Positions 13,530 to 47,410 of a DNA stretch of 56,146 nt are shown piece after piece. Location: the IMG/VR virus record IMGVR_UViG_3300029848_000009; one strand, 5' to 3'. Numbering within the stretch: position 1 is the first letter of the stretch; every line of letters starts with the position of its first letter. This DNA is from a virus. The translations under genes and the position numbers were made by a program. The notes under the pieces were generated by a model that worked only from the letters and a program-made list of their open reading frames with translations, was not told the DNA's origin and made no database searches.

Positions 13530-14492
13530 ATGGCTATAGCAGGAAGAGTGGCGATTGTACCAAAGGGCGATTGGAGCGCAGATGCTACATATAAGAGATT
13601 GGATGCAGTAACTTATAATAACACATTGTATTTTGCGAAAAAAGAAGTTCCGGCAGGAACAGCAACGAGCAATACGGAATATTGGTCGAAATCTATCGTG
13701 GGCGGTGCTAGTGCGATTGCAACAACAGAGGATGCCGGAGTTGTAAAGCCGGACGGAAAGAGCATGAGCGTAGATGAAAGCGGAACGCTTAGCATTAACT
13801 TGGATGGAACTACAATCACATTAGATGAAGCGAAAAACGTCATAAAGTTGGCAGATACACTAAAAGAAAAGATCGGAAGCGCACTGCAGCCTGAAAGCAT
13901 TGCCAATAACCAGACAACAACTGAAGCAGGATTCGCCTTAGACGCTAGACAGGCTAATCCAAACGTGGATGGAACTTTGGCTAAACAGTTAAGTAATGCT
14001 GCTACTAAAACTGAAGTGAGAGCTTTAAATCCAGCCGATAGTATTAAGATATGCAGCCACTTTTCAATTGGCAAACTTGGAGAAGGATGGTATAGATCTG
14101 CTGAAATAGTTTGTGATACTGATACAGTTGCCAAAGGAGCAAATAGTTTATTCATAGAAATGTTAATAAACCAATTCTGGAATGTACAAGTTGGATGCTT
14201 TCAAAGGGTGCAAATAATTACAAAACACTCAGATAAAGCCAGCATTTCTAGCATAGGTCTTGGAACATTAAACATAACAAAAGTTAGAGTTGTTAGAAAA
14301 GTCAACATTTTATATTTGGATATATTCAGCAGAGGGTATGATGATGCAACTAAACTGTTAGTAAATATACCAACGCCTACTTACGTTACTTCGGCAAGAG
14401 CTTATGATGATATGAAAGTTGTTCCAGAAACTGCTGACGGAGAAACAATTGTGCGAAGTATCGAACTTAAAGATAACTTTACAGGTGCATAA
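13530..14492 (+). CDS. Tail fibre / receptor-binding protein candidate
   Basis: N-terminal KGDWSADATYKRLDAVTYNNTLYFAKK...EYW fibre-type motif. Last large structural gene. Confidence 0.6.
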   Translation: MAIAGRVAIVPKGDWSADATYKRLDAVTYNNTLYFAKKEVPAGTATSNTEYWSKSIVGGASAIATTEDAGVVKPDGKSMSVDESGTLSINLDGTTITLDEAKNVIKLADTLKEKIGSALQPESIANNQTTTEAGFALDARQANPNVDGTLAKQLSNAATKTEVRALNPADSIKICSHFSIGKLGEGWYRSAEIVCDTDTVAKGANSLFIEMLINQFWNVQVGCFQRVQIITKHSDKASISSIGLGTLNITKVRVVRKVNILYLDIFSRGYDDATKLLVNIPTPTYVTSARAYDDMKVVPETADGETIVRSIELKDNFTGA

Positions 14493-16984: not shown

Positions 16985-17746
16985 ATGAACGAATTACAGA
17001 TTTTTAATAATGAAGAATTCGGAGAAGTCCGAATGGCAGAGATTAATGGAAAACCGTATTTTGTAGCAACAGATGTTGCAACCGCACTTGGTTATACGAA
17101 CCCACGCAAAGCGATTAGTGACCATTGCAAGGGGGTAACAAAACGTGACACCCCTACATCTAGTGGAGTGCAACAGATGTCATACATAAATGAGGGGGAT
17201 TTATACCGACTCATTATGAAATCAAAATTACCTAGCGCAGAGAAGTTTGAAAAATGGGTAATGGAAGAAGTCCTTCCGTCAATCCGTAAGAATGGCGGTT
17301 ACATAGCAGGGCAGGAAACCTTGTCTGATGAAGAGTTGCTTTCCAAGGCACTTATGGTGGCACAACGAAAGATTGACGAAAAGAACAACATCATTGCCAT
17401 GCAGGACTCACGAATCCAAGGAATGATACCTAAAGAGATTTTCGCTGATGCAGTATCAGCAAGCCATACATCAATCCTTATAGGAGATTTAGCAAAGCTG
17501 ATTTGCCAGAACGGTGTGCAGATAGGACAGAAGCGGTTGTTTGAGTGGTTGCGAGAGAATAACTTCCTTATTAAAAGCGGTACTTCTAGGAATATGCCAA
17601 AACAGAGATATGTGGAACAGGGATTGTTTGAGGTTAAGGAAAGCAACATTCAGAATCCGGACGGTTCCGTAAGAATCACAAAGACAACGAAAGTTACCGG
17701 AAAAGGACAAGTTTACTTTGTAAACAAATTCCTGAAAGGAGCATGA
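16985..17746 (+). CDS. Antirepressor (Bro-N domain + KilAC/ANT C-terminal domain)
   Basis: IFNNEEFGEVRMAEINGKPYFVATDVATALGY...FEKWVMEEVLPSIRKNGGY is Bro-N. ILIGDLAKLICQNGVQIGQKRLFEWLRENNFLIK is KilAC-like. Confidence 0.8.
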   Translation: MNELQIFNNEEFGEVRMAEINGKPYFVATDVATALGYTNPRKAISDHCKGVTKRDTPTSSGVQQMSYINEGDLYRLIMKSKLPSAEKFEKWVMEEVLPSIRKNGGYIAGQETLSDEELLSKALMVAQRKIDEKNNIIAMQDSRIQGMIPKEIFADAVSASHTSILIGDLAKLICQNGVQIGQKRLFEWLRENNFLIKSGTSRNMPKQRYVEQGLFEVKESNIQNPDGSVRITKTTKVTGKGQVYFVNKFLKGA

Positions 17747-33230: not shown

Positions 33231-33956
33231 TTGTGCGCACATAAAACCGGGTTTCCTTTTGGTAGATTTAGAATGAAAGTACATTGTTTATTTGAACAGT
33301 CAGGAACATTCAAGAATGCTTTCAAGAAGTATGGGATTGAAGCCTACGACTATGATATTCAGAATGAATTTAACGAAACCGACTATGTTACTGACCTTTT
33401 TGAAGAGATTGATAGGGGGTATCAAGGCGAGCCAAGTTTGTTTGATAAGATAAGTACTGATGATTTGATATTTGCATTTTTCCCTTGCACTAGGTTTGAA
33501 GCACAAATACTTTTATCCTTTCGGGGTCAGCAAAAACAAGATAAGAATATGACCTTGTTGGATAAGTTAGAAAGAGATTTGCGACTTCATACAGAGTTAC
33601 ATCGTAACTATCTATTAGTTACTAAACTTGCAATAATTTGCGAAAGAAAAGGATTGAGAATGGTTTTGGAAAATCCGGCTGGAGAACAACATTATCTTAC
33701 CAAGTATTGGTGCGTTAAACCGAAAGTAATTGATAAAAACCGAAGAGAGAATGGAGATTACTTTAAGAAACCTACTCAATTTTGGTTTTTCAATTTTGAA
33801 CCGAAATTCAATTTTATTTTTGAAGCGTTGGATTGGGTTAAACCTAAAACTTGGAGTGGTTTATCGCAAACAGAACGCAGTATGATACACCCACAGTACG
33901 CAGATAGATTTATCAGACAATATATTCTCGATGAAGAAATATGGAGAAAACAATAG
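33231..33956 (+). CDS. Divergent C5-cytosine-methyltransferase-like protein
   Basis: CLFEQSGTF sits at the motif I position, FFPCTRFE resembles motif IV (PC), and VLENPAG resembles motif VI (ENV). The start is uncertain (TTG 33231 or ATG 33264). Confidence 0.4.
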   Translation: MCAHKTGFPFGRFRMKVHCLFEQSGTFKNAFKKYGIEAYDYDIQNEFNETDYVTDLFEEIDRGYQGEPSLFDKISTDDLIFAFFPCTRFEAQILLSFRGQQKQDKNMTLLDKLERDLRLHTELHRNYLLVTKLAIICERKGLRMVLENPAGEQHYLTKYWCVKPKVIDKNRRENGDYFKKPTQFWFFNFEPKFNFIFEALDWVKPKTWSGLSQTERSMIHPQYADRFIRQYILDEEIWRKQ

Positions 33957-34039
33957 TTTTATAGATTTTATCAATTATTATTAGATTTTCCACATTAAAA
34001 AATCTAAATATCAACCAATAAAATAAGGAGAAATGGCTT

Positions 34040-34267
34040 ATGAAATTTACAAAATTCATTAAGCCAGAACTTGAATACATTAAAGAAAATGCCAATTTCA
34101 CGGAAGAAGAGGAGAGGATTTTCTCTCTTCTCTGCCGTGGTTTTTCACAAAAGCAAATATCCACAAAAGAAAATCTATCACTAAGAACGATAGAGTACAG
34201 AGTGAGAGATATAAAAGATAAAATAGAAAGAACGGGGGTATTTGATTGGATGAAAAAGAACTGTTGA
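34040..34267 (+). CDS. Small LuxR/GerE-type HTH regulator (75 aa)
   Basis: FTEEEERIFSLLCRGFSQKQISTKENLSLRTIEYRVRDIKDKI fits the LuxR/GerE HTH pattern. Confidence 0.6.
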   Translation: MKFTKFIKPELEYIKENANFTEEEERIFSLLCRGFSQKQISTKENLSLRTIEYRVRDIKDKIERTGVFDWMKKNC

Positions 34268-35442
34268 AATATGCCGTTGATAGTGGTATTCTCGACATAG
34301 CACTTGTGCAGAAACAAGTCACTATGCAAAAGAGAGAAAAATTACTCAACAAAAATCCCTATAAAATCTATCAAGGAAAGGATGAGAACTGGTACTCATA
34401 TCTGCCGGATGAAGTTAAAGGCAGACGTAAAATCAAGGCAAAGCGTAGAGAAGCGGTCGAGCAGAAAATCATTGATTATTGGAAAGAGAGAGAGGATGAC
34501 CCTACAGTAGAGGAAATCTTCAATCGTTGGATTTCACAAAAGCTGGAACTTGAAGAAATCAGCAGGGCAACCTATGACAGATACTTAATGGACTTTCAGA
34601 GATACTTTGACGGTATCAAAGATAAGAAAATCAAAAGAATAGACGAATGCGACCTTGAAACGTTTATACGAAACAGCATCCATGATTTCAACATGACTTC
34701 CAAGGCATTCTCAAACTTCCGAACGCTGATTTATGGAATCTTTAAGTATGCCAAGCGGAAGAAGTATGTCAAGTTTTCCATTACATACACGCTGAAAGAC
34801 ATGGACATATCGCCAAAAGCGTTTAAGCACGTAGTCCGACAGGCAAAAGACCAAGTATATATGCCGGATGAAAAGGAGCGCATGGAGATGTATCTTAGGA
34901 ATCACTTAGATATCGTGAACCTTGGATTGTTATTCATGTTTAAGACAGGGGTTCGTGTCGGGGAATTGTCGGCATTAAAGCGGAAAGATGTTGAAAACTA
35001 CACGGTTGCTATCAATTCTACAGAAACACGCTATCGGGATGATGATGGTTTTCACTATGAGGTCAAAGATTTTCCGAAATCAGAAGCCGGATTGCGATTT
35101 GCAATATTGCCAGATAAGTACAAATGGATTCTTGATGAAGTACGAAAGAGAAATCCCTTCGGGGAATATCTATTTGAGAGAGATGGAGAACGGTTGAAAT
35201 CCTACAACTTTCGTGAACGTTTGCGGTACATCTGTGAACACGAACTGCGAATGAAAGTGAAATCTCCGCACAAAATCCGAAAGACGTATGGAAGTATCTT
35301 GCTTGACGGAAAAGTGAAAGAGTCCACAATCCTTGATACTATGGGGCATACAGACATTAGTTGCACAAAAGATCATTATTATTTTGATCGTACCGGAATT
35401 GAGGAAAAGAGACAGGAACTTGACTTAATCGAAGCATTATGA
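34246..35442 (+). CDS. int: Tyrosine integrase
   Basis: C-terminal catalytic pattern: GVRVGEL...HKIRKTYGSILL...LGHTDISCTKDHYYF (R..HxxR..Y). attP-like region lies immediately downstream. Confidence 0.85.
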   Translation: MDEKELLKYAVDSGILDIALVQKQVTMQKREKLLNKNPYKIYQGKDENWYSYLPDEVKGRRKIKAKRREAVEQKIIDYWKEREDDPTVEEIFNRWISQKLELEEISRATYDRYLMDFQRYFDGIKDKKIKRIDECDLETFIRNSIHDFNMTSKAFSNFRTLIYGIFKYAKRKKYVKFSITYTLKDMDISPKAFKHVVRQAKDQVYMPDEKERMEMYLRNHLDIVNLGLLFMFKTGVRVGELSALKRKDVENYTVAINSTETRYRDDDGFHYEVKDFPKSEAGLRFAILPDKYKWILDEVRKRNPFGEYLFERDGERLKSYNFRERLRYICEHELRMKVKSPHKIRKTYGSILLDGKVKESTILDTMGHTDISCTKDHYYFDRTGIEEKRQELDLIEAL

Positions 35443-35449
35443 GTCCCTA

Positions 35450-35612
35450 GTACTCAAAGGTACTCAAAGAAAAATTGATAGAATGGCTATTTTAAGCCAT
35501 TTCAAGGCAATTACTCTAGGGTTCGATTCTCGTACGGACTGTTTTTAAAGTCGCATAAACACTGTGTTTGCGGCGTCTTAAAAAACTTTGGTACTCAAAA
35601 TGGTACTCAAAA
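35450..35612 (+). mobile_element. attP region: tRNA 3'-end-like core flanked by two pairs of GTACTCAAA(G/A) arm-type repeats
   Basis: GTACTCAAAG at 35450 and 35460. GTACTCAAAA at 35591 and 35603. Core GGGTTCGATTCTCGTACGGACT at 35519-35540. Palindrome ATGGCTattttaAGCCAT at 35483-35500. Confidence 0.6.
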
Positions 35613-35677
35613 ATTGAACACAAAAGAAAGGAGTCTGCGCAAGTGCTTTAGATTCTTTTCTGAAAATGGTAGACTTG

Positions 35678-35701
35678 GAACGCTTGGGGCGTTCTTTTTT
35701 T
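35678..35701 (+). terminator. Intrinsic terminator
   Basis: gaacgc ttggg gcgttc followed by ttttttt. Confidence 0.7.
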
Positions 35702-35778
35702 ATGCGGTTTTTCTGCTTATTTTTTGCGGAAGAACCGTATTTTTTTATGCAAAAATATAAGCATAGGAGGGATGCGGA

Positions 35779-35931
35779 ATGTTATTTACAGATGAAATTC
35801 TTGAAAAAATCTTAACAAGAGAAGATGTGTCAAAGGTTCCGCTTGTGTATCAGTCAGCAATGATTCACGCAATCAAGGAAGTATTGGAGGAAGAGAATGT
35901 ATCAGATGCAAAATCAGAATATGGCATTTAA
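35779..35931 (+). CDS. Small hypothetical protein (50 aa), first gene of the attP-adjacent module
   Basis: ATG 35779 after TAGGAGGGATGCGGA. Overlaps the next gene by 35 nt. Confidence 0.4.
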   Translation: MLFTDEILEKILTREDVSKVPLVYQSAMIHAIKEVLEEENVSDAKSEYGI

Positions 35932-36373
35932 CCCAAACCCAAGCTATGCCGCATATCAGTACAACCCAATGCAGAGGTTTCAACAGCCAGAGCCACAGAT
36001 TCCGCAGATGCAACCGCAGTTTCTTGGAATCCAAGGAAAAGTAGTACAGTCGGAATCGGCGATCATGGCGAATGATGTGCCTATGGATGGAAGCGTTGCG
36101 TTTTTCCCGATGCAGGACATGAGCGCAATCGTTGCAAAACAATGGGATGCCAATGGAACAATCAGAAAGACCGTTTACAAGCCTTTTAATGAGCAGATGG
36201 CAGATTCTTCGATTGATGATAAAAGAATTGAAATAGGGCTGTCTGACGATGCGACAAAGGCTATTACTGACAAATTGGATTGCTTGTTTGGAAAGATGGA
36301 AGAGTTGGAAGATAAGCTATCTTCGCAAACGCAAAGAAAATCTTCACGAACACAAAAGGAGAGTGAGTCTTAA
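35897..36373 (+). CDS. Q/N/P/M-rich protein of unknown function
   Basis: GGAGGAAGAGA RBS. N-terminus MYQMQNQNMAFNPNPSYAAYQYNPMQRFQQPEPQIPQMQPQ. Confidence 0.6.
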   Translation: MYQMQNQNMAFNPNPSYAAYQYNPMQRFQQPEPQIPQMQPQFLGIQGKVVQSESAIMANDVPMDGSVAFFPMQDMSAIVAKQWDANGTIRKTVYKPFNEQMADSSIDDKRIEIGLSDDATKAITDKLDCLFGKMEELEDKLSSQTQRKSSRTQKESES

Positions 36374-36600
36374 TGAATCCTATGCAGATGTTACAGGGAA
36401 TGAGAAACCCACAGCAGTTTTTACAACAAATGATGGGGAATAACAGCGTAATGAGCAACCCTATGGCGCGCAATGCTATGCAAATGGCGCAGAAGGGAGA
36501 TTCCAAGGGCATCGAACAGATGGCTAGGAATTTGTGCAAAGAAAAGGGAATTGACGCAGATAAGGCTTTTGAGTCGTTTAAAAGCCAATTAGGAATGTGA
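36373..36600 (+). CDS. Met/Gln-rich small protein of unknown function
   Basis: 75 aa with 12 Met and 10 Gln. TAATG overlap with the previous gene. Confidence 0.55.
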   Translation: MNPMQMLQGMRNPQQFLQQMMGNNSVMSNPMARNAMQMAQKGDSKGIEQMARNLCKEKGIDADKAFESFKSQLGM

Positions 36601-36653
36601 TACTAATTCTTGCAAGATTATGTATATAAAAATGAATTATGGAGGTAAATTCT

Positions 36654-37415
36654 ATGTTTAACACAGGTAATTGTGCATCCGTTCCGCTTGTCGCGAACAT
36701 TGACGGAAACGGAAATAACAACGGATGGGGCGCAGAAGGCTCATGGTTATGGTTCATTATCGTTATCTTTGCCATCTTCGGATGGGGCGGATTTGGTAAC
36801 GGATTCGGAGGAAACGGAATGAATGGTGGTGTCGGAAGCGAAATTCAGCGCGGATTTGATAATCAGGCGGTTGTGTCAAAACTTGACGGCATTACAAACG
36901 GACTTTGTGACGGATTCTATGCAGTGCAAACAGGCATGAACGGCATCAACACAAACATCTTGCAGACCGGATTCGGCATCCAGCAGGCTATCAATGCTGA
37001 TACAGTTGCTAACATGCAGAATACAAACGCATTACAGTCACAGCTTGCAAACTGCTGCTGTGAAACAAGAGAAGCTATCCAAGGCGTAAACTACAACATG
37101 GCAACTAACACTTGCGCGTTGCAGAACACAATGAACAGCAACACAAGAGACATTATCGACAGTCAGAACGCAGGAACACGCGCTATTCTTGATTATCTCT
37201 GCAATGAGAAAATTTCTTCCTTACAGGCAGAAAATAATGACCTTCGCAGAGCGGCTTCACAGGATCGTCAGAGTGCATTACTTACAACTCAGATGGCAGC
37301 TCAGACACAGCAGATTATCAATGCAGTAAATCCGTCTGCTATCCCGGCATATGTTGTACCTAACCCAAATGCTTATGCATATGGATGCGGATGCAACACA
37401 GGATGTGGCTGCTAA
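36654..37415 (+). CDS. Gly/Asn-rich single-TM protein with Q/N-rich middle and Cys-rich C-terminus
   Basis: ATG 36654 after GGAGGTAAATTCT. GNGNNNGWGAEGSWLWFIIVIFAIFGWGGFGNGFGGNG, then ANCCCETRE, ending AYAYGCGCNTGCGC. Confidence 0.6.
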   Translation: MFNTGNCASVPLVANIDGNGNNNGWGAEGSWLWFIIVIFAIFGWGGFGNGFGGNGMNGGVGSEIQRGFDNQAVVSKLDGITNGLCDGFYAVQTGMNGINTNILQTGFGIQQAINADTVANMQNTNALQSQLANCCCETREAIQGVNYNMATNTCALQNTMNSNTRDIIDSQNAGTRAILDYLCNEKISSLQAENNDLRRAASQDRQSALLTTQMAAQTQQIINAVNPSAIPAYVVPNPNAYAYGCGCNTGCGC

Positions 37416-37538
37416 AACTAAATAATTGAGTATCTTAATTGAGTTTAACTCGATCATGTCTGCTATGCAGTATTACTTTTGAATCAAAGGGCAGACTATA
37501 ATGTTTGCCCTTATTTTTATGAAAGAGAGGTAAAAATA

Positions 37539-37958
37539 ATGGAAGTAACAGGAATTGCATTACAAACCGTTGCTGCTGGAGAAGATGTTGCATTTACAGA
37601 AACGGCAGTAAACGGAACAAAATGTATCGTACACAGACAAGGAAGCGGAATTATAAAACTAAGAGGTATCACCAATCAGTGCAAGGCTAGATTTTTGGTA
37701 TCGTATTCCGGCAACATTCAGATTCCGACAGGCGGTACAGTCGGAGAGATTTCACTTGCAATCGCGGTTGATGGAGAGCCTTTGCAGTCAACAAAGATGA
37801 TCGTAACCCCAGCCGCAGTTGAGAATTTCTTTAACGTATCAGCACAGGCATACGTTGATGTGCCTTGCGGTTGTTGCAGTACCGTAGCCGTGCAGAATAC
37901 ATCCACGCAGGCTATCGAGGTTCAGAACAGTAATTTGATTGCAGTAAGGGAGGCTTGA
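37539..37958 (+). CDS. All-beta ~139-aa protein, possibly C1q/TNF-like (BclA C-terminal-domain-like)
   Basis: ATG 37539 after GAGAGGTAAAAATA. Alternating beta pattern FLVSYSGNIQIP...ISLAIAVDGEPLQ...AQAYVDVPCGCCSTVAVQN...LIAVREA. The fold call rests on sequence resemblance alone. Confidence 0.55.
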   Translation: MEVTGIALQTVAAGEDVAFTETAVNGTKCIVHRQGSGIIKLRGITNQCKARFLVSYSGNIQIPTGGTVGEISLAIAVDGEPLQSTKMIVTPAAVENFFNVSAQAYVDVPCGCCSTVAVQNTSTQAIEVQNSNLIAVREA

Positions 37959-37962
37959 TATT

Positions 37963-38643
37963 ATGCATAAGTTTGCGAAACAGATTATGGATTGCGTGAA
38001 AGCCCACGTTGACGGCATCGGAATCGAGAATTTTGAAGGACAAAACCTCGATGATCTCAAGGATTGGACGGAAATTGCAAAGAATATCGTATGCTTTGAC
38101 AAGGACTATAACATTGTTGAAGCGATGAAAAGGTCTGAAGATGAAGAAATCATGCGCATGATGGAAGAATTTGGGGATTATCCGGGAAGAAGATACTACA
38201 ATGAGTACCGGTACTCAAATGGCAGATTCGCACCGAAAGGACGTGGAACACGCAGAGGATATGTAGAACCACCATATTATCATCAGATGCCGGAAGATTA
38301 CCACGAATGGGAGAGTATGCCAGAATACGACCGAATGAGAGACCTTGACAGAATGAGTATGGGAAAGATGTATTATTCAGAGCCTATGAGCGGAAATAAC
38401 GGCATGAGTACCGGTACTCACGATGCAAGAGAAGGCAGAGCCGGTATGAGTCGGAGAAGCTACATGGAGACAAAGGAAATGCATAACGGAAATTCACCTG
38501 AAGATAAGGATGCAAAGATGAAAGAACTCGAAAAGTACATGAAATCTCTTTCGGAAGATGTGACCGAACTGTTTTCCGGAATGTCCCCAGAAGAGAAACA
38601 GTTGACCAAGACAAAGCTGACTACGCTTGTTACGAAAATGTAA
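37963..38643 (+). CDS. Arg/Tyr/Met/Glu-rich protein of unknown function
   Basis: GRRYYNEYRYSNGRFAPKGRGTRRGYVEPPYYHQMPEDYHEWESMPEYDRMRDLDRM. Confidence 0.55.
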   Translation: MHKFAKQIMDCVKAHVDGIGIENFEGQNLDDLKDWTEIAKNIVCFDKDYNIVEAMKRSEDEEIMRMMEEFGDYPGRRYYNEYRYSNGRFAPKGRGTRRGYVEPPYYHQMPEDYHEWESMPEYDRMRDLDRMSMGKMYYSEPMSGNNGMSTGTHDAREGRAGMSRRSYMETKEMHNGNSPEDKDAKMKELEKYMKSLSEDVTELFSGMSPEEKQLTKTKLTTLVTKM

Positions 38644-38646
38644 TAG

Positions 38647-38671
38647 AGAGGGCATTTTGCCCTCTTTGTTT
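38647..38671 (+). terminator. Hairpin / partial terminator
   Basis: agagggc atttt gccctct followed by ttgttt. Confidence 0.5.
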
Positions 38672-39002
38672 GCGAGGTGGTAAATTGTTCACAATAAACA
38701 ATGAAATGTGGAATTTGGTCAAAGTATCGCGTTACAGCGATATGCTACAGAGAAGTGACGGAAGTAGAACGGTAGGCATGACCGACAGGGACACGCAAAC
38801 AATATATCTTGCAGATGATCTACGCGGAAAATTCCTTGATCGTGTGTTATGCCACGAATTATGTCATGCATTCTGTCTTTCGTATAATGTATACATGGAT
38901 ATTGATACCGAGGAAATCGTAGCAGACTTCTTGGCTACATACGGAAGAGAAGTGTTTGAAATAGCAGACAGATTATTGATTAAACTTATGGAGGTTGCAT
39001 AA
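38670..39002 (+). CDS. Small HExxH metallopeptidase-like protein (ImmA/IrrE- or SprT-like)
   Basis: TIYLADDLRGKFLDRVLCHELCHAF carries the HELCH motif. The start is uncertain (TTG 38670/38685 or ATG 38706). Confidence 0.5.
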   Translation: MRGGKLFTINNEMWNLVKVSRYSDMLQRSDGSRTVGMTDRDTQTIYLADDLRGKFLDRVLCHELCHAFCLSYNVYMDIDTEEIVADFLATYGREVFEIADRLLIKLMEVA

Positions 39003-39154
39003 TGGATAAAATTTCAGAACTCTTACAGTACGTGCACCGGACGAATCCGGAAATGACTAGGGAAAGGCTGATAGAAGAGTTGAGCAAAAGTGACTATGCG
39101 GCGCGTTCTTTGATTTTCACGAAAGAAAACATCGTTGCGCTAGGTCAAAAATAA
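39002..39154 (+). CDS. Small hypothetical protein (50 aa)
   Basis: TAATG overlap. MDKISELLQYVHRTNPEMTRERLIEELSKSDYAARSLIFTKENIVALGQK. Confidence 0.4.
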   Translation: MDKISELLQYVHRTNPEMTRERLIEELSKSDYAARSLIFTKENIVALGQK

Positions 39155-39155
39155 A

Positions 39156-39180
39156 TCCGGCGGTTTGAATTGCCGCCGGA
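39156..39180. terminator. Bidirectional terminator between convergent genes
   Basis: tccggcgg (39156-39163) pairs with ccgccgga (39173-39180). Confidence 0.7.
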
Positions 39181-39186
39181 ATTGTA

Positions 39187-39426
39187 TCAGACTTTCGGAA
39201 TGTAAGAACCTTTCATTATTTCTATAGCGAGTTTCGCGCCTTCCGTCATGTAAAAATCATTATTCTTTGCACAGCAACTAAAAAGCAGTTCCTCGAACTC
39301 TGAATATAAATTTTCACTTAATAACCCTTTCAGCTTCTCTGTTAAGGGTGAGAAGTATTCAACAAAGGCATTTCCGGTTTCATTGTCAAGCTGACTTGAA
39401 CATACGATTTTAATAAATTCATCCAT
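39187..39426 (-). CDS. Hypothetical protein (weak paralog of next gene)
   Basis: 79 aa. ELLFSCCAKNNDFYMTEGAKLAIEIM resembles AAFIAGFACCAKFLTNG in 39448-39723. Confidence 0.5.
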   Translation of the reverse strand: MDEFIKIVCSSQLDNETGNAFVEYFSPLTEKLKGLLSENLYSEFEELLFSCCAKNNDFYMTEGAKLAIEIMKGSYIPKV

Positions 39427-39447: not shown

Positions 39448-39723
39448 CTATTCGTTTGGTAACAAGTCTGTTTTGCCATTTGTAAGGAACTTTGCGCAAC
39501 ACGCGAATCCAGCAATAAAAGCCGCTTCTTGAATGTCGCAAACACCATCCCTTATCTTATCGCTAATGTCGTTATACAGTTTTTCGCTCAACACATCCTT
39601 AAGGCTGTCAACCGAATCATACATCTTGTAGCAAGCAGAATTGATAATTCTTACACTCTTTGAATTGTTTACATCGTTTGTGTCTAAAAAGTTTTCATAA
39701 GCAATTTTTAATAATTCTTCCAT
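39448..39723 (-). CDS. Hypothetical protein
   Basis: ATG 39723 (MEELLKIAYENF) after GGAGAGAAACAATT on the - strand. Confidence 0.5.
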   Translation of the reverse strand: MEELLKIAYENFLDTNDVNNSKSVRIINSACYKMYDSVDSLKDVLSEKLYNDISDKIRDGVCDIQEAAFIAGFACCAKFLTNGKTDLLPNE

Positions 39724-39777
39724 AATTGTTTCTCTCCATTTCTGTTTTGTGTTTTTCTTGATGAATATACAGTAACA

Positions 39778-39951
39778 TATATAAGTTGAATATTCAACCG
39801 ACAATATAACCAAAATATATAAGTTGAATTTGTGTGGCTATTGTGAATATTATATAAGTTGAATATATGATTATACGCATAGCTGATTATATAACTTGAA
39901 TATTGACATATTTAACGATAATTGATAATATGTTTATATAAATTGAATATT
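39778..39951 (+). repeat. Five direct copies of a 16-17-bp iteron TATATAA(G/C/A)TTGAAT(A/T)T in a divergent intergenic region
   Basis: Copies start at 39778, 39816, 39851, 39888 and 39935. Copy 1 extends into the palindrome GTTGAATATTCAAC. TTGACA 39904-39909 follows copy 4. Confidence 0.85.
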
Positions 39952-39966
39952 AAAAGAGGTGAGACA

Positions 39967-40149
39967 ATGGCAAAAACTCCAGAGTATACAAAGAAAGCTA
40001 TTCAGAATTACAATAACAAGTTTGACAGAATAGCAGTTAATTTACCAAAGGGGACAAAAAACAGGATAAAAGTATTGACCGGAAAAAGTTGTAATGCTTA
40101 TGTTTCTGAATTGGTTGTAAAAGATTTAAACAGCTTAGAAAATAAGTAA
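39967..40149 (+). CDS. Ribbon-helix-helix (CopG/Arc-like) small DNA-binding protein
   Basis: ATG 39967 after AGAGGTGAGACA. FDRIAVNLPKGTKNRIKVLTGKSCNAYVSELVVKDL fits an RHH beta-alpha-alpha pattern. Confidence 0.5.
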   Translation: MAKTPEYTKKAIQNYNNKFDRIAVNLPKGTKNRIKVLTGKSCNAYVSELVVKDLNSLENK

Positions 40150-40204: not shown

Positions 40205-40915
40205 ATGGAGGAATTAGAAAAATTGGAAATTCCAGCAATCAAAGTTTGGGATTCTCAAAGGGTTGTAACTTTTAATGATATAGACAGAGTACATCAAAGA
40301 CCTAACGGAACGGCAAAGCGTAGTTTTAAACAAAATAGAAAACATTTTATTTTGAACGAAGATTACTTTGAATTAACAAGAAAAGAGTTCGGGACGAATT
40401 TCGTCCCTAATTCCGAACCGTTAAAAGGGAACCCGAATTTGAAAGTCTTTTTATTTACAGAAACAGGATATTTAATGCTTGTAAAGTCATTCCATGATGA
40501 TTTGTCTTGGAAAGTGCAAAGAAGACTTGTAAGCTCATATTTCAATTGTGGAAAGTTGCAAAACGAAGTGATAAATCGAAGTGATGTACCGCAACCGCAT
40601 GAAGGTCATTATCCATCGTTGGCTAACACTTGGATGAAAGACCATGAACCTCTATTTAAGCAGATTTGTAGTGCCTATGGGATCAGCAGAAAGGAACTGT
40701 ACCACAAGATATTGTTGGATATTGGGGATGATTATAATGTTGATGATTATAGAGTTTTCTATAAGCGCGATACCGGACACGCGCCAGAGTATATCATGGA
40801 GGTTGTATCGTTTTATCCAGAATTAAGGGAAGCGGCAGAAACTATCATACAGATACACATGAATAGAGTTAGAAGGTACCCAAAAGAGTATTTAGGGCAT
40901 ATATATAACAGATAA
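40205..40915 (+). CDS. ORF6N/KilA-N-type antirepressor-like protein
   Basis: SQRVVTFNDIDRVHQRPNGTAKRSFKQNRKHFILNEDYFELTRKE fits the ORF6N pattern. Confidence 0.55.
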   Translation: MEELEKLEIPAIKVWDSQRVVTFNDIDRVHQRPNGTAKRSFKQNRKHFILNEDYFELTRKEFGTNFVPNSEPLKGNPNLKVFLFTETGYLMLVKSFHDDLSWKVQRRLVSSYFNCGKLQNEVINRSDVPQPHEGHYPSLANTWMKDHEPLFKQICSAYGISRKELYHKILLDIGDDYNVDDYRVFYKRDTGHAPEYIMEVVSFYPELREAAETIIQIHMNRVRRYPKEYLGHIYNR

Positions 40916-46521: not shown

Positions 46522-46592
46522 TGGGCTATCGCCAAACGGTAAGGCACAGGATTTTGATTCCTGCATTCCGGGTTCGAATCCCGGTAGCCTAA
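46522..46592 (+). tRNA. tRNA-Gln (anticodon UUG)
   Basis: Acceptor TGGGCTA/TAGCCTA. Anticodon stem CAGGA/TCCTG with loop TTTTGAT. T arm CCGGG-TTCGAAT-CCCGG. U1-A72 is typical of bacterial tRNA-Gln. Confidence 0.85.
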
Positions 46593-46819
46593 TCGGTTGC
46601 ATGTTGACGTTTCATGTAGCCACGTATGTTTTCCATACGTACTTGAACCCTTGGTTGAGTGATTCAAGCATTTGGGTTCCTCCTTTCGCCACTAGGACGA
46701 TTCTGTTAAGGACGGTGCGAGACCGTCCGGTGGTATTCTATCATGCGTCTATCCCACGGCGCATGATCGTGTAACGCATAGCACGTAAAACATATTGCTA
46801 ACCGTCTCGTGGCGGTTAT

Positions 46820-46890
46820 GATCGGTTAGTCGAGCGGTAAGACACCACCCTTTCACGGTGGTAACACGAGTTCAAATATCGTACCGATCA
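46820..46890 (+). tRNA. tRNA-Glu (anticodon UUC) with a non-canonical T arm
   Basis: Acceptor GATCGGT/ACCGATC. Anticodon stem CCACC/GGTGG with loop CTTTCAC. T arm ACGAG-TTCAAAT-ATCGT has a G53-A61 mismatch. Confidence 0.6.
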
Positions 46891-46896
46891 TTGTAT

Positions 46897-46968
46897 TGGG
46901 ATTTAATTCAGTGGTAGAAGACACGGCTTATATCCGGGTTGTCGCGGGTTCGATTCCTGCAATCCCAA
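46897..46968 (+). tRNA. tRNA-Ile-like (anticodon UAU)
   Basis: Acceptor TGGGATT/AATCCCA. Anticodon stem CACGG/CCGGG (one A-G mismatch) with loop CTTATAT. T arm GCGGG-TTCGATT-CCTGC. Confidence 0.55.
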
Positions 46969-47108
46969 CGCGTTGTAAAATATTGTTTATGTGACAAGGC
47001 TGACGAGTTTTGGTGTAATGAATGATGTTTTTCTTGTGATGGAAGCGTTGTCGACTTAAAAAGCGTGGAAATAGGACGATGAAAGTTCGTTTACGATATA
47101 TAGAAAAT

Positions 47109-47196
47109 TTTGCAGTGTTCCCATAACGGTATTGGAACGGCTTGCTAAGCCGCCGGGCGTTTGTTCGCCTTGCAGGTTCGAATCCTGTGTACGGCG
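47109..47196 (+). tRNA. tRNA-Ser(GCU)-like pseudo-tRNA (long variable arm, acceptor strands do not pair)
   Basis: Loop TTGCTAA at 47142-47148. Variable arm GGCG/CGCC. T arm GCAGG-TTCGAAT-CCTGT at 47172-47188. The 5' tttgcag and 3' gtacggc strands are not complementary. Confidence 0.3.
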
Positions 47197-47410
47197 TTTG
47201 CTCGAAAAAATCGGGCGTTGATATGTGGCGAAAAAGGTAAACGCTATTGCCGTAAGATAATTCGTTGAAACCGGCAACCTAGATGACGAGAAGTGCACTA
47301 ATCATGCATGGTGCAAATCCATGCCATATCAATTCAATTACATTTATTACACACAAAAGACGCGGAATCTCACGAGGATTCCGATTTTTGCTATGATTGG
47401 GGGCGTAAGA

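Follow-up and report, generated by a model that had tools for sequence, protein, structure and literature searches.

A mobile accessory cassette of gut Clostridia phages encoding a predicted BclA/C1q-like protein

Gene organization and composition of the attP-proximal block

To ask whether eight genes lying beside the integration site of a phage form a functional unit, and what they might encode, we analyzed a 56,146-nucleotide stretch of viral DNA (IMG/VR record IMGVR_UViG_3300029848_000009), hereafter the window. A sequence-only reading had described the block at 35779-39154 as a terminator-insulated module of proteins with extreme composition, and had proposed that it is a lysogenic-conversion system, possibly one acting on the spore surface. 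All eight ORFs (o1 to o8) were found on the + strand, with intergenic gaps of -35, -1, 53, 123, 4, 26 and -1 nt, and homologs supported the ATG at 36654 as the start of o4. The unusual compositions were also confirmed. The first 42 residues of o2 (35897-36373) contain Q11, P7, M5 and N5, and o3 (36373-36600) has 12 Met and 10 Gln in 75 aa. o4 (36654-37415) has 35 Asn, 31 Gly and 11 Cys; its only strongly hydrophobic stretch is LWFIIVIFAIFGW, and it carries a CCC triplet and ends in GCGCNTGCGC. HELCH is present in o7 (38670-39002). No ORF hit a named family in Pfam, NCBIfam or PADLOC, and the PHROG hits were all of unknown function; none mapped to a known virion, lysis, replication or defense family.

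We next examined the boundaries of the block. Upstream, two tandem terminator-like hairpins with U-runs, at 35677-35695 (-10.1 kcal/mol) and 35703-35741 (-21.2 kcal/mol), insulate the block from upstream transcription, and relatives also have a hairpin plus T-run before the cassette. Downstream, a hairpin with an 8-bp GC stem is present at 39156-39180, but its U-run lies on the minus-strand side only. It is therefore a good terminator for the convergent minus-strand genes and only a U-less hairpin for the module, so that the earlier description of this element as bidirectional is only partly right.

The attP-like region (35448-35617) contains four copies of GGTACTCAAA, arranged as 2+2 arm-type repeats (T/A)GGTACTCAAA, which flank a tRNA-3'-end-like core (ggttcgattctcgtacgg, about 35511-35535). 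It follows a tyrosine integrase gene (34246-35442, +; phrog_1, E 1e-30, and Pfam Phage_integrase), which is not part of the cassette. Among close relatives, an integrated form (locus L007) and a phage form (locus L009) share an identical core equal to the 3' end of a host tRNA-Met gene, together with "aaggtaacac" arm repeats. In the integrated form, the module lies directly inside attL, next to host metH. Thus, the prediction that the block would sit at the extreme edge of the prophage is confirmed in integrated relatives.

The cassette recurs in three genomic slots

To determine whether the block is specific to this phage, we surveyed related loci. A cassette with the fixed order small σ4/GerE-like HTH, peptidase, o2, o3, o4, o5, o6 recurred in about 90 independent phage and prophage loci from Lachnospiraceae, Oscillospiraceae and relatives. 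o2 was found in 81 of 91 loci, and o6 (37963-38643, +) in 88 of 91 loci, always directly after o5. o2 belongs to phrog_21718 and has a Q/P/N/M/Y-rich N-terminus, a conserved central domain of about 60 aa, and a C-terminal coiled coil with a K/E/S-rich tail; no Pfam or PDB relatives were found. o3 is a probably helical protein with NPxxQ repeats, and the main lineage's version belongs to phrog_22984. o6, of which the main lineage's version hits phrog_28802, has an Arg/Tyr/Gly/Ser/Met-rich low-complexity region between N- and C-terminal segments that appear helical by eye. By contrast, o1 (35779-35931, +), a 50-aa acidic helical protein that overlaps the o2 start, is specific to this lineage, with homologs in 13 loci, always directly before o2. 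o7 and o8 are separable from o1-o6 in relatives. o8 (39002-39154, +), a 50-aa protein, always accompanies o7 and was detected in 12 loci, directly after o7 (o7a).

Pfam searches of the neighboring genes placed the cassette in three slots: after the lysis genes, between the minor-capsid and scaffold genes, or beside integrase-attP. Upstream neighbors were lysis genes or Phage_min_cap2 (12), and downstream neighbors were integrases (11 Tyr and 2 Ser) or scaffold (8). In about 12 of the 71 distinct loci whose upstream neighbors were scanned, the cassette sits inside the head-gene operon, and one of these is a temperate phage that has its own lysis-integrase slot; the prophage edge is thus a frequent location but not a rule. 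The cassette is also shared by phages with unrelated head genes. Between the window and locus L004, o5 is 86% and o4 67% identical, while the window's terminase, portal and MCP have no tblastn match in any fetched locus, including L004 and L005, which carry annotated or probable head genes. The eight ORFs are therefore one lineage's version of a portable cassette.

A presumed regulator and a conserved 5' box

The gene at 34040-34267 (+) encodes a 75-aa stand-alone σ70-region-4/GerE(LuxR)-type HTH protein that passes Pfam GerE (25.0 bits against a cut-off of 23.5). Its homologs lie upstream and co-directional in 52 of 75 complete cassettes, and relatives hit PHROG "sigma factor" and Sigma70_r4 families, indicating that it belongs to the unit as its presumed regulator. 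In the window, the integrase-attP unit separates it from the rest of the cassette, and L009 has the same order of GerE, integrase and module.

Immediately behind the terminators, we found a conserved box, TTTATGCAAAAATATAAGCATAGGAGG (35744-35770, +), which consists of a T-run and ATGCMAAAATWTAAK followed by the RBS. This box is unique in the window and was found in 15 fetched loci, two of which are near-duplicates of L007. In 14 of them, it lies at the 5' side of the cassette, within about 450 nt of the called o1/o2 start; the exception is locus L057. Degenerate forms occur after the HTH gene in head-operon versions. The box has a -10-like TATAAG but no -35, and is a candidate activator-dependent promoter or regulator-binding site.

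A covarying RNA element between o4 and o5

A second cis element lies at the o4/o5 junction (37412-37535, +). It comprises a variable hairpin, a 5-bp hairpin with conserved flanks (AUGUyyGs...sCrrUAUUAC), and a strong GC hairpin with a U-run (37487-37512). A covariance model of this element gave one hit per source in 56 sources, always on the + strand (70.3 bits in the window), with no second hit in 1.18 Mb; wherever o4 and o5 were mapped, the hit lay in the o4-o5 gap. In the alignment, 97.3% of cells were paired, and the covariation score was 0.772, against 0.336 when shuffled and at most 0.22 when slid. No Rfam family was hit. The element is a candidate attenuator or terminator. Both this RNA and the 5' box are new.

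o5 is predicted to adopt a BclA-C/C1q/TNF-type jelly roll

o5 (37539-37958, +; phrog_20016) is a 139-aa protein with an invariant GCC loop, which the sequence-only reading had likened to the BclA C-terminal domain. The AlphaFold2 model (pLDDT 82.2, pTM 0.77) supported this assignment. Foldseek searches of the PDB with this model hit F-BclA-CTD (9h38, E 7e-7, TM 0.69), BxpB (8d02, TM 0.70), ExsFA, EDA, C1q and BclA (1wck), and hits in BFVD included C1q and collagen proteins. In addition, 7 of 85 divergent family members hit Pfam BclA_C directly (best E 2.3e-10). The o5 family forms 844 clusters at 50% identity, of which the top 150 are all 80-196 aa, indicating a stand-alone architecture like that of the exosporium protein ExsF/BxpB.

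A possible membrane-anchored complex

o4 (phrog_16490, E 2e-59) has a Gly/Asn-rich N-terminus, one Trp-flanked hydrophobic helix (residues about 31-44), three long helices, a near-invariant CCC, a conserved PxPIPAYxVPNP motif and a C-terminal CxCxxxCxC tail. In alignments, W33, C134-136, P229, P231, P238, C247 and C253 were near-invariant. The helices were taken from a low-confidence AlphaFold2 model (pLDDT 32), and the topology of o4 is ambiguous because no basic residues flank the hydrophobic helix.

The cassette also includes one peptidase. In most lineages it is papain-like (Cys-His-Asp), whereas in the window this position is occupied by o7, a minimal zinc metallopeptidase of the minigluzincin/IrrE-like type (HExxH plus a downstream Glu) with invariant H62, E63, H66 and E82. 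Profile searches against the PDB hit MJ1213 (E 5e-4) and IrrE (0.014), and sub-threshold Pfam hits were obtained to DUF6782, SprT-like and M78. The o7-type and papain-like genes were mutually exclusive, occurring in 18 and 54 loci, respectively, with none carrying both (papain-like first, 54/18/0/3). However, the two types track two cassette lineages, so their mutual exclusion could reflect shared ancestry rather than functional replacement.

Taken together, these findings are best explained, with moderate confidence, by a transcriptionally insulated, self-regulated accessory cassette of Clostridia siphophages that acts on the host cell and is not part of the virion. In the absence of expression or localization data, every mechanistic step beyond gene order is inferred. 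In this scheme, the HTH protein, made as the last gene of an upstream phage operon, would switch on the -35-less box behind the terminator; o1-o4 would be transcribed first, and the RNA element would then set or gate read-through into o5-o8. o4 would insert into the cytoplasmic membrane by its N-terminal helix, with its helical domain in the cytoplasm (no signal peptides were evident by eye in the cassette). Trimers of o5 would dock on the conserved C-terminal Pro-rich peptide of o4, resembling the way in which ExsF clamps the leader peptides of BclA and F-Anchor (PMC12357932); this docking is an analogy, not a result. The Cys clusters (o4 CCC and CxC, o5 GCC) would lock the complex by metal ions or disulfides. 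The low-complexity proteins o2, o3 and o6 would act as scaffolds or chaperones, with Met-rich o3 possibly shielding the hydrophobic segment of o4, and the peptidase would mature one component. The biological role is undetermined, with envelope or spore-surface remodeling, exclusion of other phages, or a membrane platform used during lytic growth as candidates.

Is the cassette a spore-surface system?

We then considered the original proposal that the phage remodels the spore surface. In this reading, the cassette would be expressed in the mother cell of a sporulating lysogen under a GerE-like regulator, and would add an exosporium- or coat-like layer made of an ExsF/BclA-C-like trimer, Cys-rich cross-linkers and a CotG-like Arg/Tyr/Ser-rich protein. 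The best structural matches of o5 are indeed exosporium proteins, relatives hit BclA_C, the composition is Cys-, Gly- and Tyr-rich, and the regulator passes Pfam GerE, although this HTH is equally well a generic σ70-region-4 protein. The apparent lack of signal peptides would suit coat proteins made in the mother-cell cytoplasm, a peptidase is part of the kit, and BclA is proteolytically matured before docking on ExsF (PMC12357932), and the hosts are Clostridia, with one host flank encoding SpoIIGA.

However, no σK/σE/σG/σF-type promoter or GerE box was found upstream in the window, and none was enriched across 185 upstream regions of relatives; because the consensus sequences are from B. subtilis, this is weak negative evidence. 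A complete cassette is kept in Butyrivibrio fibrisolvens phage Ceridwen, the only cultured carrier, whose host probably does not sporulate, and other named hosts include Lachnospira, Agathobacter, Roseburia, Anaerobutyricum and Subdoligranulum, which are likewise apparently non-spore-forming. The resemblance to coat and exosporium proteins is a shared fold for o5 and shared amino-acid composition for the rest, and no sequence similarity was found to any coat or exosporium protein other than the BclA_C superfamily. The spore-surface reading is thus not supported, and we regard it as unlikely.

Virion-linked and exclusion roles

The position of about 12 loci between the minor capsid protein and the scaffold raised the possibility that the products are packaged or ejected accessory proteins, or a fiber or decoration, with a membrane-penetration-type o4 carrying a fusion-peptide-like Gly-rich segment, an Arg/Tyr-rich DNA-binding o6, a maturation protease, a TNF-like knob and the HTH as a late activator. 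Ceridwen has no integrase in the fetched region and has been seen only in lytic growth, and the HTH gene is always co-directional with, and at the end of, a lytic operon. BclA-C/C1q heads in phages are usually receptor-binding tips, and TNF/C1q heads occur in phage spikes and fibers (9eul, 8ke9; BFVD tail fibers). The o4 profile also gave weak hits to influenza HA2 over the fusion peptide and helix (E 0.03), but these are not significant and are driven by composition. By contrast, the cassette is exchanged between phages with unrelated terminase, portal and MCP, is flanked by terminators even inside a head operon, most often sits outside the structural modules, and hits no virion PHROG or Pfam family. 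Moreover, o5 relatives never carry an N-terminal fiber or attachment domain. A virion-linked role therefore remains possible but doubtful.

Finally, we considered superinfection exclusion, or a new anti-phage or anti-defense system acting at the cytoplasmic membrane, which we judge the least likely of these alternatives. No PADLOC model was hit, there is no nuclease, ATPase, NTPase or other effector or sensor domain, and five low-complexity or structural-looking proteins are atypical for defense systems. In addition, if the HTH is made only from lytic operons, the cassette would be off in the lysogen. Nevertheless, the moron-like position at prophage ends, the mobility between phages, the inferred membrane-anchored component, and the presence of its own regulator and insulation are consistent with such a role, as is a very high prevalence in gut prophages: o5 and o4 each form at least 8000 clusters at 90% identity, and one o4 sequence was seen on at least 1000 contigs.

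Genomic context of the gene block

To place the eight ORFs in context, we first examined the whole 56,146-nt window, which is a temperate siphophage-like genome lying almost entirely on the + strand. Tail genes are at about 1-15 kb, and large ORFs at 49-56 kb are placed and sized like packaging and head genes. A DNA methyltransferase (33231-33956) is followed by a 75-aa GerE/σ4-type HTH (34040-34267; hereafter reg) and a tyrosine integrase (34246-35442). Downstream of the integrase, four copies of GGTACTCAAA surround a tRNA-3'-end-like sequence, followed by two terminator-like hairpins with U-runs at 35677-35695 and 35703-35741. Eight tightly packed + strand ORFs (o1 to o8, in order; 35779-39154) then lead to a GC hairpin at 39156-39180, whose U-run lies on the minus-strand side. 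The extreme compositions attributed to these proteins in the sequence-only reading are all correct.

Beyond this hairpin are two convergent minus-strand genes (39187-39426 and 39448-39723; no known function). At 39774-39954, four to five direct copies of TATATAAGTTGAATAT lie between these divergent minus-strand genes and a + strand 60-aa gene (39967-40149), which belongs to PHROG families of unknown function and whose counterpart in L007, an integrated relative, has a weak RHH_1 hit. This arrangement looks like a genetic switch whose leftward genes are not recognisable repressors. An anti-repressor comes next; the genome carries two separate anti-repressor genes, at 16985-17746 and 40205-40915 (phrog_130 Ant, E 1e-96; phrog_4608, E 3e-40).

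Searches of all eight proteins against Pfam, NCBIfam and PADLOC gave nothing above threshold; only the neighbouring reg passed, scoring 25.0 bits against a cut-off of 23.5 for Pfam GerE. Relatives of reg score equally well on Sigma70_r4 and on PHROG sigma-factor families. Three proteins hit PHROGs, namely o4 (phrog_16490, E 2e-59), o5 (phrog_20016, E 2e-67) and o7 (phrog_1233), all labelled 'unknown function'. No defence-system model in PADLOC was hit by any of the eight proteins, nor by pep and o7b, two proteins found in related loci. A YjcZ-type tiny sporulation membrane protein was considered and rejected; no NCBIfam hit was obtained.

The block is a conserved, mobile cassette

A tblastn search with o5 found 16 GenBank phage records, and inspection of six of them showed the same gene order. 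A scan of one genome per species returned 157 further loci, of which the best 80 were kept; most are from Lachnospiraceae, Oscillospiraceae, Acutalibacteraceae and other Clostridia. We then ran HMMs for each gene over 91 loci and found o5 in 91, o6 in 88, o4 in 87 and o2 in 81. With very few exceptions, the genes are co-directional and in the order (reg)-(pep)-o2-o3-o4-o5-o6-(o7a/o8 or o7b). The small HTH gene reg lies upstream in 52 of 75 complete cassettes, whereas in the window and its close relatives the integrase-attP unit sits between reg and o1.

The pep gene encodes a 125-aa papain-like protein with invariant Cys17, His97 and Asp108. Among the 75 complete, non-duplicate cassettes, 54 have pep only, 18 have the HExxH protein o7a only, none has both, and 3 have neither. 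The HExxH motif plus a downstream Glu is conserved in o7 (about 110 aa), with H62, E63, H66 and E82 invariant in 26 homologs. Its profile hits the minigluzincin MJ1213 at E 5e-4 over nearly the full length and IrrE at E 0.014, placing it near the minigluzincins (MJ1213, projannalysin) and the ImmA/IrrE M78-type peptidases, although all Pfam matches are below the gathering thresholds and no XRE-type substrate repressor is adjacent. A peptidase therefore looks like an integral component supplied by two unrelated folds, with the caveat that the two types also mark two lineages of the cassette. In four relatives (L007-L010, 12846-14078) and in L002 (9244-10423), o7 and o8 travel with a DUF4417 gene, and in L007-L010 they are separated from o1-o6 by inserted RHH-like and pRha genes; o7/o8(/DUF4417) may therefore be a sub-module of its own.

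The cassette is very common in the searched collections. The o5 family comprises 844 clusters at 50% identity and more than 8000 at 90%, and a single o4 sequence was seen on at least 1000 contigs, in prophages of Roseburia, Anaerobutyricum, Lachnospira and many MAGs. A cultured carrier (Butyrivibrio phage Ceridwen) and cultured lysogens exist. The strict gene order, the associated regulator, an internal covarying RNA element and a swappable peptidase indicate a coherent multi-protein machine, not a random collection of small ORFs. No paper describing this cassette was found in the literature searched, including searches on phage-encoded exosporium or BclA functions and on Lachnospiraceae prophage conversion, and all of its PHROG families are of unknown function. 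As a multi-protein system it cannot be filed under any known kind, and only individual parts can be placed (the BclA_C superfamily, the minigluzincin-like peptidase and the σ4/GerE HTH); we regard it as categorically new as a system, although its function is not established.

Genomic locations of the cassette

To determine where the cassette resides, we ran Pfam on 135 upstream and 138 downstream neighbour ORFs. Upstream neighbours are lysis genes (PG_binding_1 8, GH25 4, Amidase_2 4, Amidase_3 2, at least nine holin hits, CHAP and NlpC/P60) or Phage_min_cap2 (12). Downstream neighbours are integrases (11 tyrosine, 2 serine), scaffold proteins (8), Cro/CI-type HTHs and host genes. This gives three slots: after the lysis cassette and before the integrase or prophage end; between the gp7-like minor capsid protein and the scaffold; and directly behind integrase-attP, as in the window.

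The third slot was examined in detail. L007, L008 and L010 are integrated prophages in which the cassette starts about 230 nt after a host tRNA-Met, next to metH, whereas L009 is the phage form, with the order GerE-integrase-attP-cassette. The two forms share the tRNA 3' end as the core. The prediction of the sequence-only reading, that integration puts the block at the extreme prophage edge, is therefore correct for this lineage. It is not a general rule, however: Dulem virus 35 is temperate, with an integrase after its lysis genes, yet carries the cassette inside the head operon. There too the cassette is bracketed by terminators, as seen in L004, a locus in the head operon of MT835516. In L004, a tRNA-Ile(tat) gene (13780-13853) sits immediately after the cassette's terminator, and the window has its own cluster of four tRNA genes at 46522-47197 (Gln, Glu, Ile-tat, Ser).

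The cassette is exchanged independently of the virion. The window's o5 and o4 are 86% and 67% identical to those of L004, whereas its terminase, portal and MCP have no tblastn match in any fetched locus, including L004 and a second locus, L005, which carry annotated or probable head genes. For this reason we rejected a capsid decoration protein. Because the cassette moves between phages with unrelated capsids, sits mostly outside the structural modules and hits no virion family, we favour, with moderate confidence, a host-directed function over a virion component.

In these respects the cassette resembles phage morons and lysogenic-conversion cassettes, which are autonomous units inserted between conserved phage genes. 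It is present or absent, and differently placed, in otherwise organised phage genomes, is flanked by terminator-like hairpins, sits at prophage ends in many cases, and is independent of the virion type. It differs in holding 7-9 genes rather than one or a few, in carrying its own regulator and an internal structured RNA, and in being retained in a phage seen only in lytic growth. The regulator gene is always the last gene of an upstream lytic-type operon and is followed by a terminator, an arrangement that would fit induction-dependent expression as well as lysogenic conversion.

Predicted jelly-roll fold of o5

We next predicted the structure of o5 (139 aa) with AlphaFold2. The model, built from 38 sequences, has pLDDT 82.2 and pTM 0.77 and is all-β with 9 strands. 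Foldseek searches of the PDB gave top hits, all at probability 1.0 and with TM 0.6-0.7, to the F-BclA C-terminal domain (9h38, E 7e-7, TM 0.69), BxpB (8d02, TM 0.70), ExsFA (7r1m, 7r5i, 9h3d), EDA-A1/A2, C1q and BclA (1wck and 2z5w, TM about 0.65). Phage spike and fibre knobs (9eul, 8ke9) appear lower in the list. BFVD returned small uncharacterised phage proteins, one labelled 'BclA protein', and many collagen/C1q proteins of giant viruses and phages.

At the sequence level, the window protein itself has no hit to Pfam BclA_C (PF18573) at E <= 0.1. An exhaustive profile search found 844 representative clusters at E <= 1e-3, and of 85 of these representatives, found with the o5 profile at E <= 6e-26, seven hit BclA_C directly (best E 2.3e-10). 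The link is therefore transitive, not direct, and suggests that o5 is a distant member of the BclA_C superfamily. A collagen-like (GXY) stalk, as in BclA and C1q, was not found; o5 has no repeats, and the 150 best of the 844 representatives are all 80-196 aa single-domain proteins. The o5 family has an invariant GCC loop.

The architecture of o5 is closest to ExsF/BxpB (ExsFA), the exosporium trimer of the Bacillus cereus group that clamps the leader peptides of BclA and F-Anchor, the BclA leader being proteolytically trimmed (PMC12357932). Both are stand-alone TNF/C1q-type jelly rolls (predicted for o5) of about 140-170 aa with no collagen stalk. ExsF works with a proteolytically matured partner that carries a Pro-rich docking peptide, and the cassette likewise has a conserved Pro-rich peptide in o4 and a dedicated peptidase. 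By contrast, sequence identity is only 9-10%, HMMER finds no hit to PDB sequences, the gene is phage-borne, and the proposed partner is a membrane-anchored coiled-coil protein rather than a collagen-like fibre. The finding links the BclA-C/ExsF fold, best known from spore-surface architecture in Bacilli, to phages, including phages of organisms that probably do not sporulate. Either exosporium-like assembly principles are used more widely, or phages reuse the fold for something new.

The other core proteins

The o4 protein (253 aa; 36654-37415) has a Gly/Asn-rich N-terminus and one Trp-flanked hydrophobic helix (maximum Kyte-Doolittle 2.09). Three long helices were also predicted, but only in a low-confidence model (pLDDT 32) from an alignment of effectively two distinct sequences. 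Across 80 homologs, o4 keeps a near-invariant CCC, a near-invariant Pro-rich motif (P229, P231 and P238 in '...PSPIPAYxVPNP...') and a C-terminal CxC tail. The Cys/Gly-rich C-terminus suggested a RiPP or bacteriocin precursor, which we rejected, as there is no modification enzyme or transporter and the protein is 253 aa. The o2 protein combines a P/Q/Y-rich N-terminus, a conserved central domain of about 60 aa and a coiled coil; o3 is a Met/Gln-rich protein with NPxxQ repeats; and o6 has apparently helical ends around an Arg/Tyr/Gly/Ser-rich region. As judged by eye, no protein shows an evident signal peptide.

None of these families has Pfam or PDB relatives. Profile searches against PDB sequences gave no meaningful hit for o2, o5 or pep. 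For o4, the family profile repeatedly picked only influenza HA2 (fusion peptide plus first helix) at E 0.03-0.7, over residues about 46-126. This match is not significant, and we treat it as compositional resemblance, not homology, although o4 has the same layout of a Gly-rich hydrophobic segment followed by long helices. Pfam scans of 80 o4 and 76 o2 homologs gave only scattered coiled-coil noise, including Baculo_PEP_C in 4 of 80 at E >= 0.005.

By analogy with ExsF-BclA, we infer that o5 trimers dock on the Pro-rich and Cys-rich tail of o4, that o2, o3 and o6 have scaffold or chaperone roles, and that the peptidase acts in maturation. A more far-reaching and doubtful possibility, which the data do not rule out, is that gut Clostridia phages carry a portable 'surface-assembly kit'. 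In such a kit, a membrane-anchored Cys-rich coiled-coil stalk (o4) would capture stand-alone BclA-C/ExsF-like trimers (o5) through a Pro-rich docking peptide and Cys/metal locks, assisted by prion-like and Arg/Tyr-rich scaffold proteins and a dedicated maturation peptidase, and switched on by a σ4-like activator and a previously undescribed structured RNA attenuator. The result would be a new proteinaceous layer or fibre on the host membrane or spore that changes how lysogens, or infected cells, interact with phages, the immune system or the gut surface, and the kit would have spread by horizontal transfer among hundreds of phage lineages.

Conserved cis elements

Directly before the first cassette gene lies TTTTTTTATGCMAAAATWTAAK followed by the RBS (35744-35770), a box that is unique in the window. 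The box (a T-run, ATGCMAAAATWTAAK and the RBS; for example also in L007 at about 8119, L012, L013, L036 and L043) was found in its strict pattern in 15 fetched loci, two of which are near-duplicates of L007. In 14 of these it lies at the 5' side of the cassette, behind a hairpin, the exception being locus L057. Degenerate versions follow reg in head-operon cassettes, and some versions form a TATGC-N10-GCATA palindrome. The box has a -10-like hexamer but no -35, and a consensus σ70 scan found no promoter there; we infer that it is an activator-dependent promoter or regulator site.

We also investigated whether the cassette carries sporulation-type control sequences. No σK/σE/σG/σF-type promoter or GerE box was found in 35560-35790, 37400-37545 or 33950-34045, and across 185 upstream regions the observed counts are at or below the shuffled expectation. 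A role in the spore surface, as proposed in the sequence-only reading, would be in keeping with the exosporium proteins that are the best structural analogues of o5, with the coat-protein-like composition and with the Pfam GerE match of reg. However, the complete cassette is also kept in Butyrivibrio fibrisolvens phage Ceridwen, which has been seen only in lytic growth and has no integrase in the fetched region, and many of the named hosts are likely to be non-spore-forming. We consider this reading unlikely.

The 123-nt o4-o5 gap holds a conserved structured RNA (37412-37535), consisting of a variable hairpin, a 5-bp hairpin with conserved flanks, and a strong terminator-like hairpin with a U-run (37487-37512). 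A covariance model built from 34 sequences finds one hit per source in 56 sources, that is, the window and 55 related loci (for example L004 11874-11991 and L054 7870-7990), always on the + strand. Wherever o4 and o5 were mapped, the hit lies in the o4-o5 gap, and there is no second hit in 1.18 Mb. Across these hits, 97.3% of cells are paired, 12 of 14 pairs show double changes, and the covariation score is 0.772, against 0.336 when shuffled and at most 0.22 when slid. An Rfam 15 scan of 35300-39400 found nothing relevant, with no hit at E <= 1 at 37412-37535. The element is absent from the most divergent cassettes. It is a candidate new cis-regulatory RNA, possibly an attenuator that sets or gates expression of o5-o8.

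The element stays with o4 when extra genes are inserted before o5. In loci L016-L019 and L083, ORFs of 0.5-1.3 kb follow the RNA element, flanked by a repeated 'ctgatagttt...aaactatcag' hairpin with a T-run. In Ceridwen (L001, 8428-9222), an ORF that by eye looks like an HNH/AP2-like endonuclease lies between o5 and o6. Finally, a called protein on an ENA contig of 1899 nt (P0001) fuses the first 40 aa of o3 to the o5 upstream region and o5 (100% identical over o5), which is either a natural deletion of o4 or an assembly artefact.
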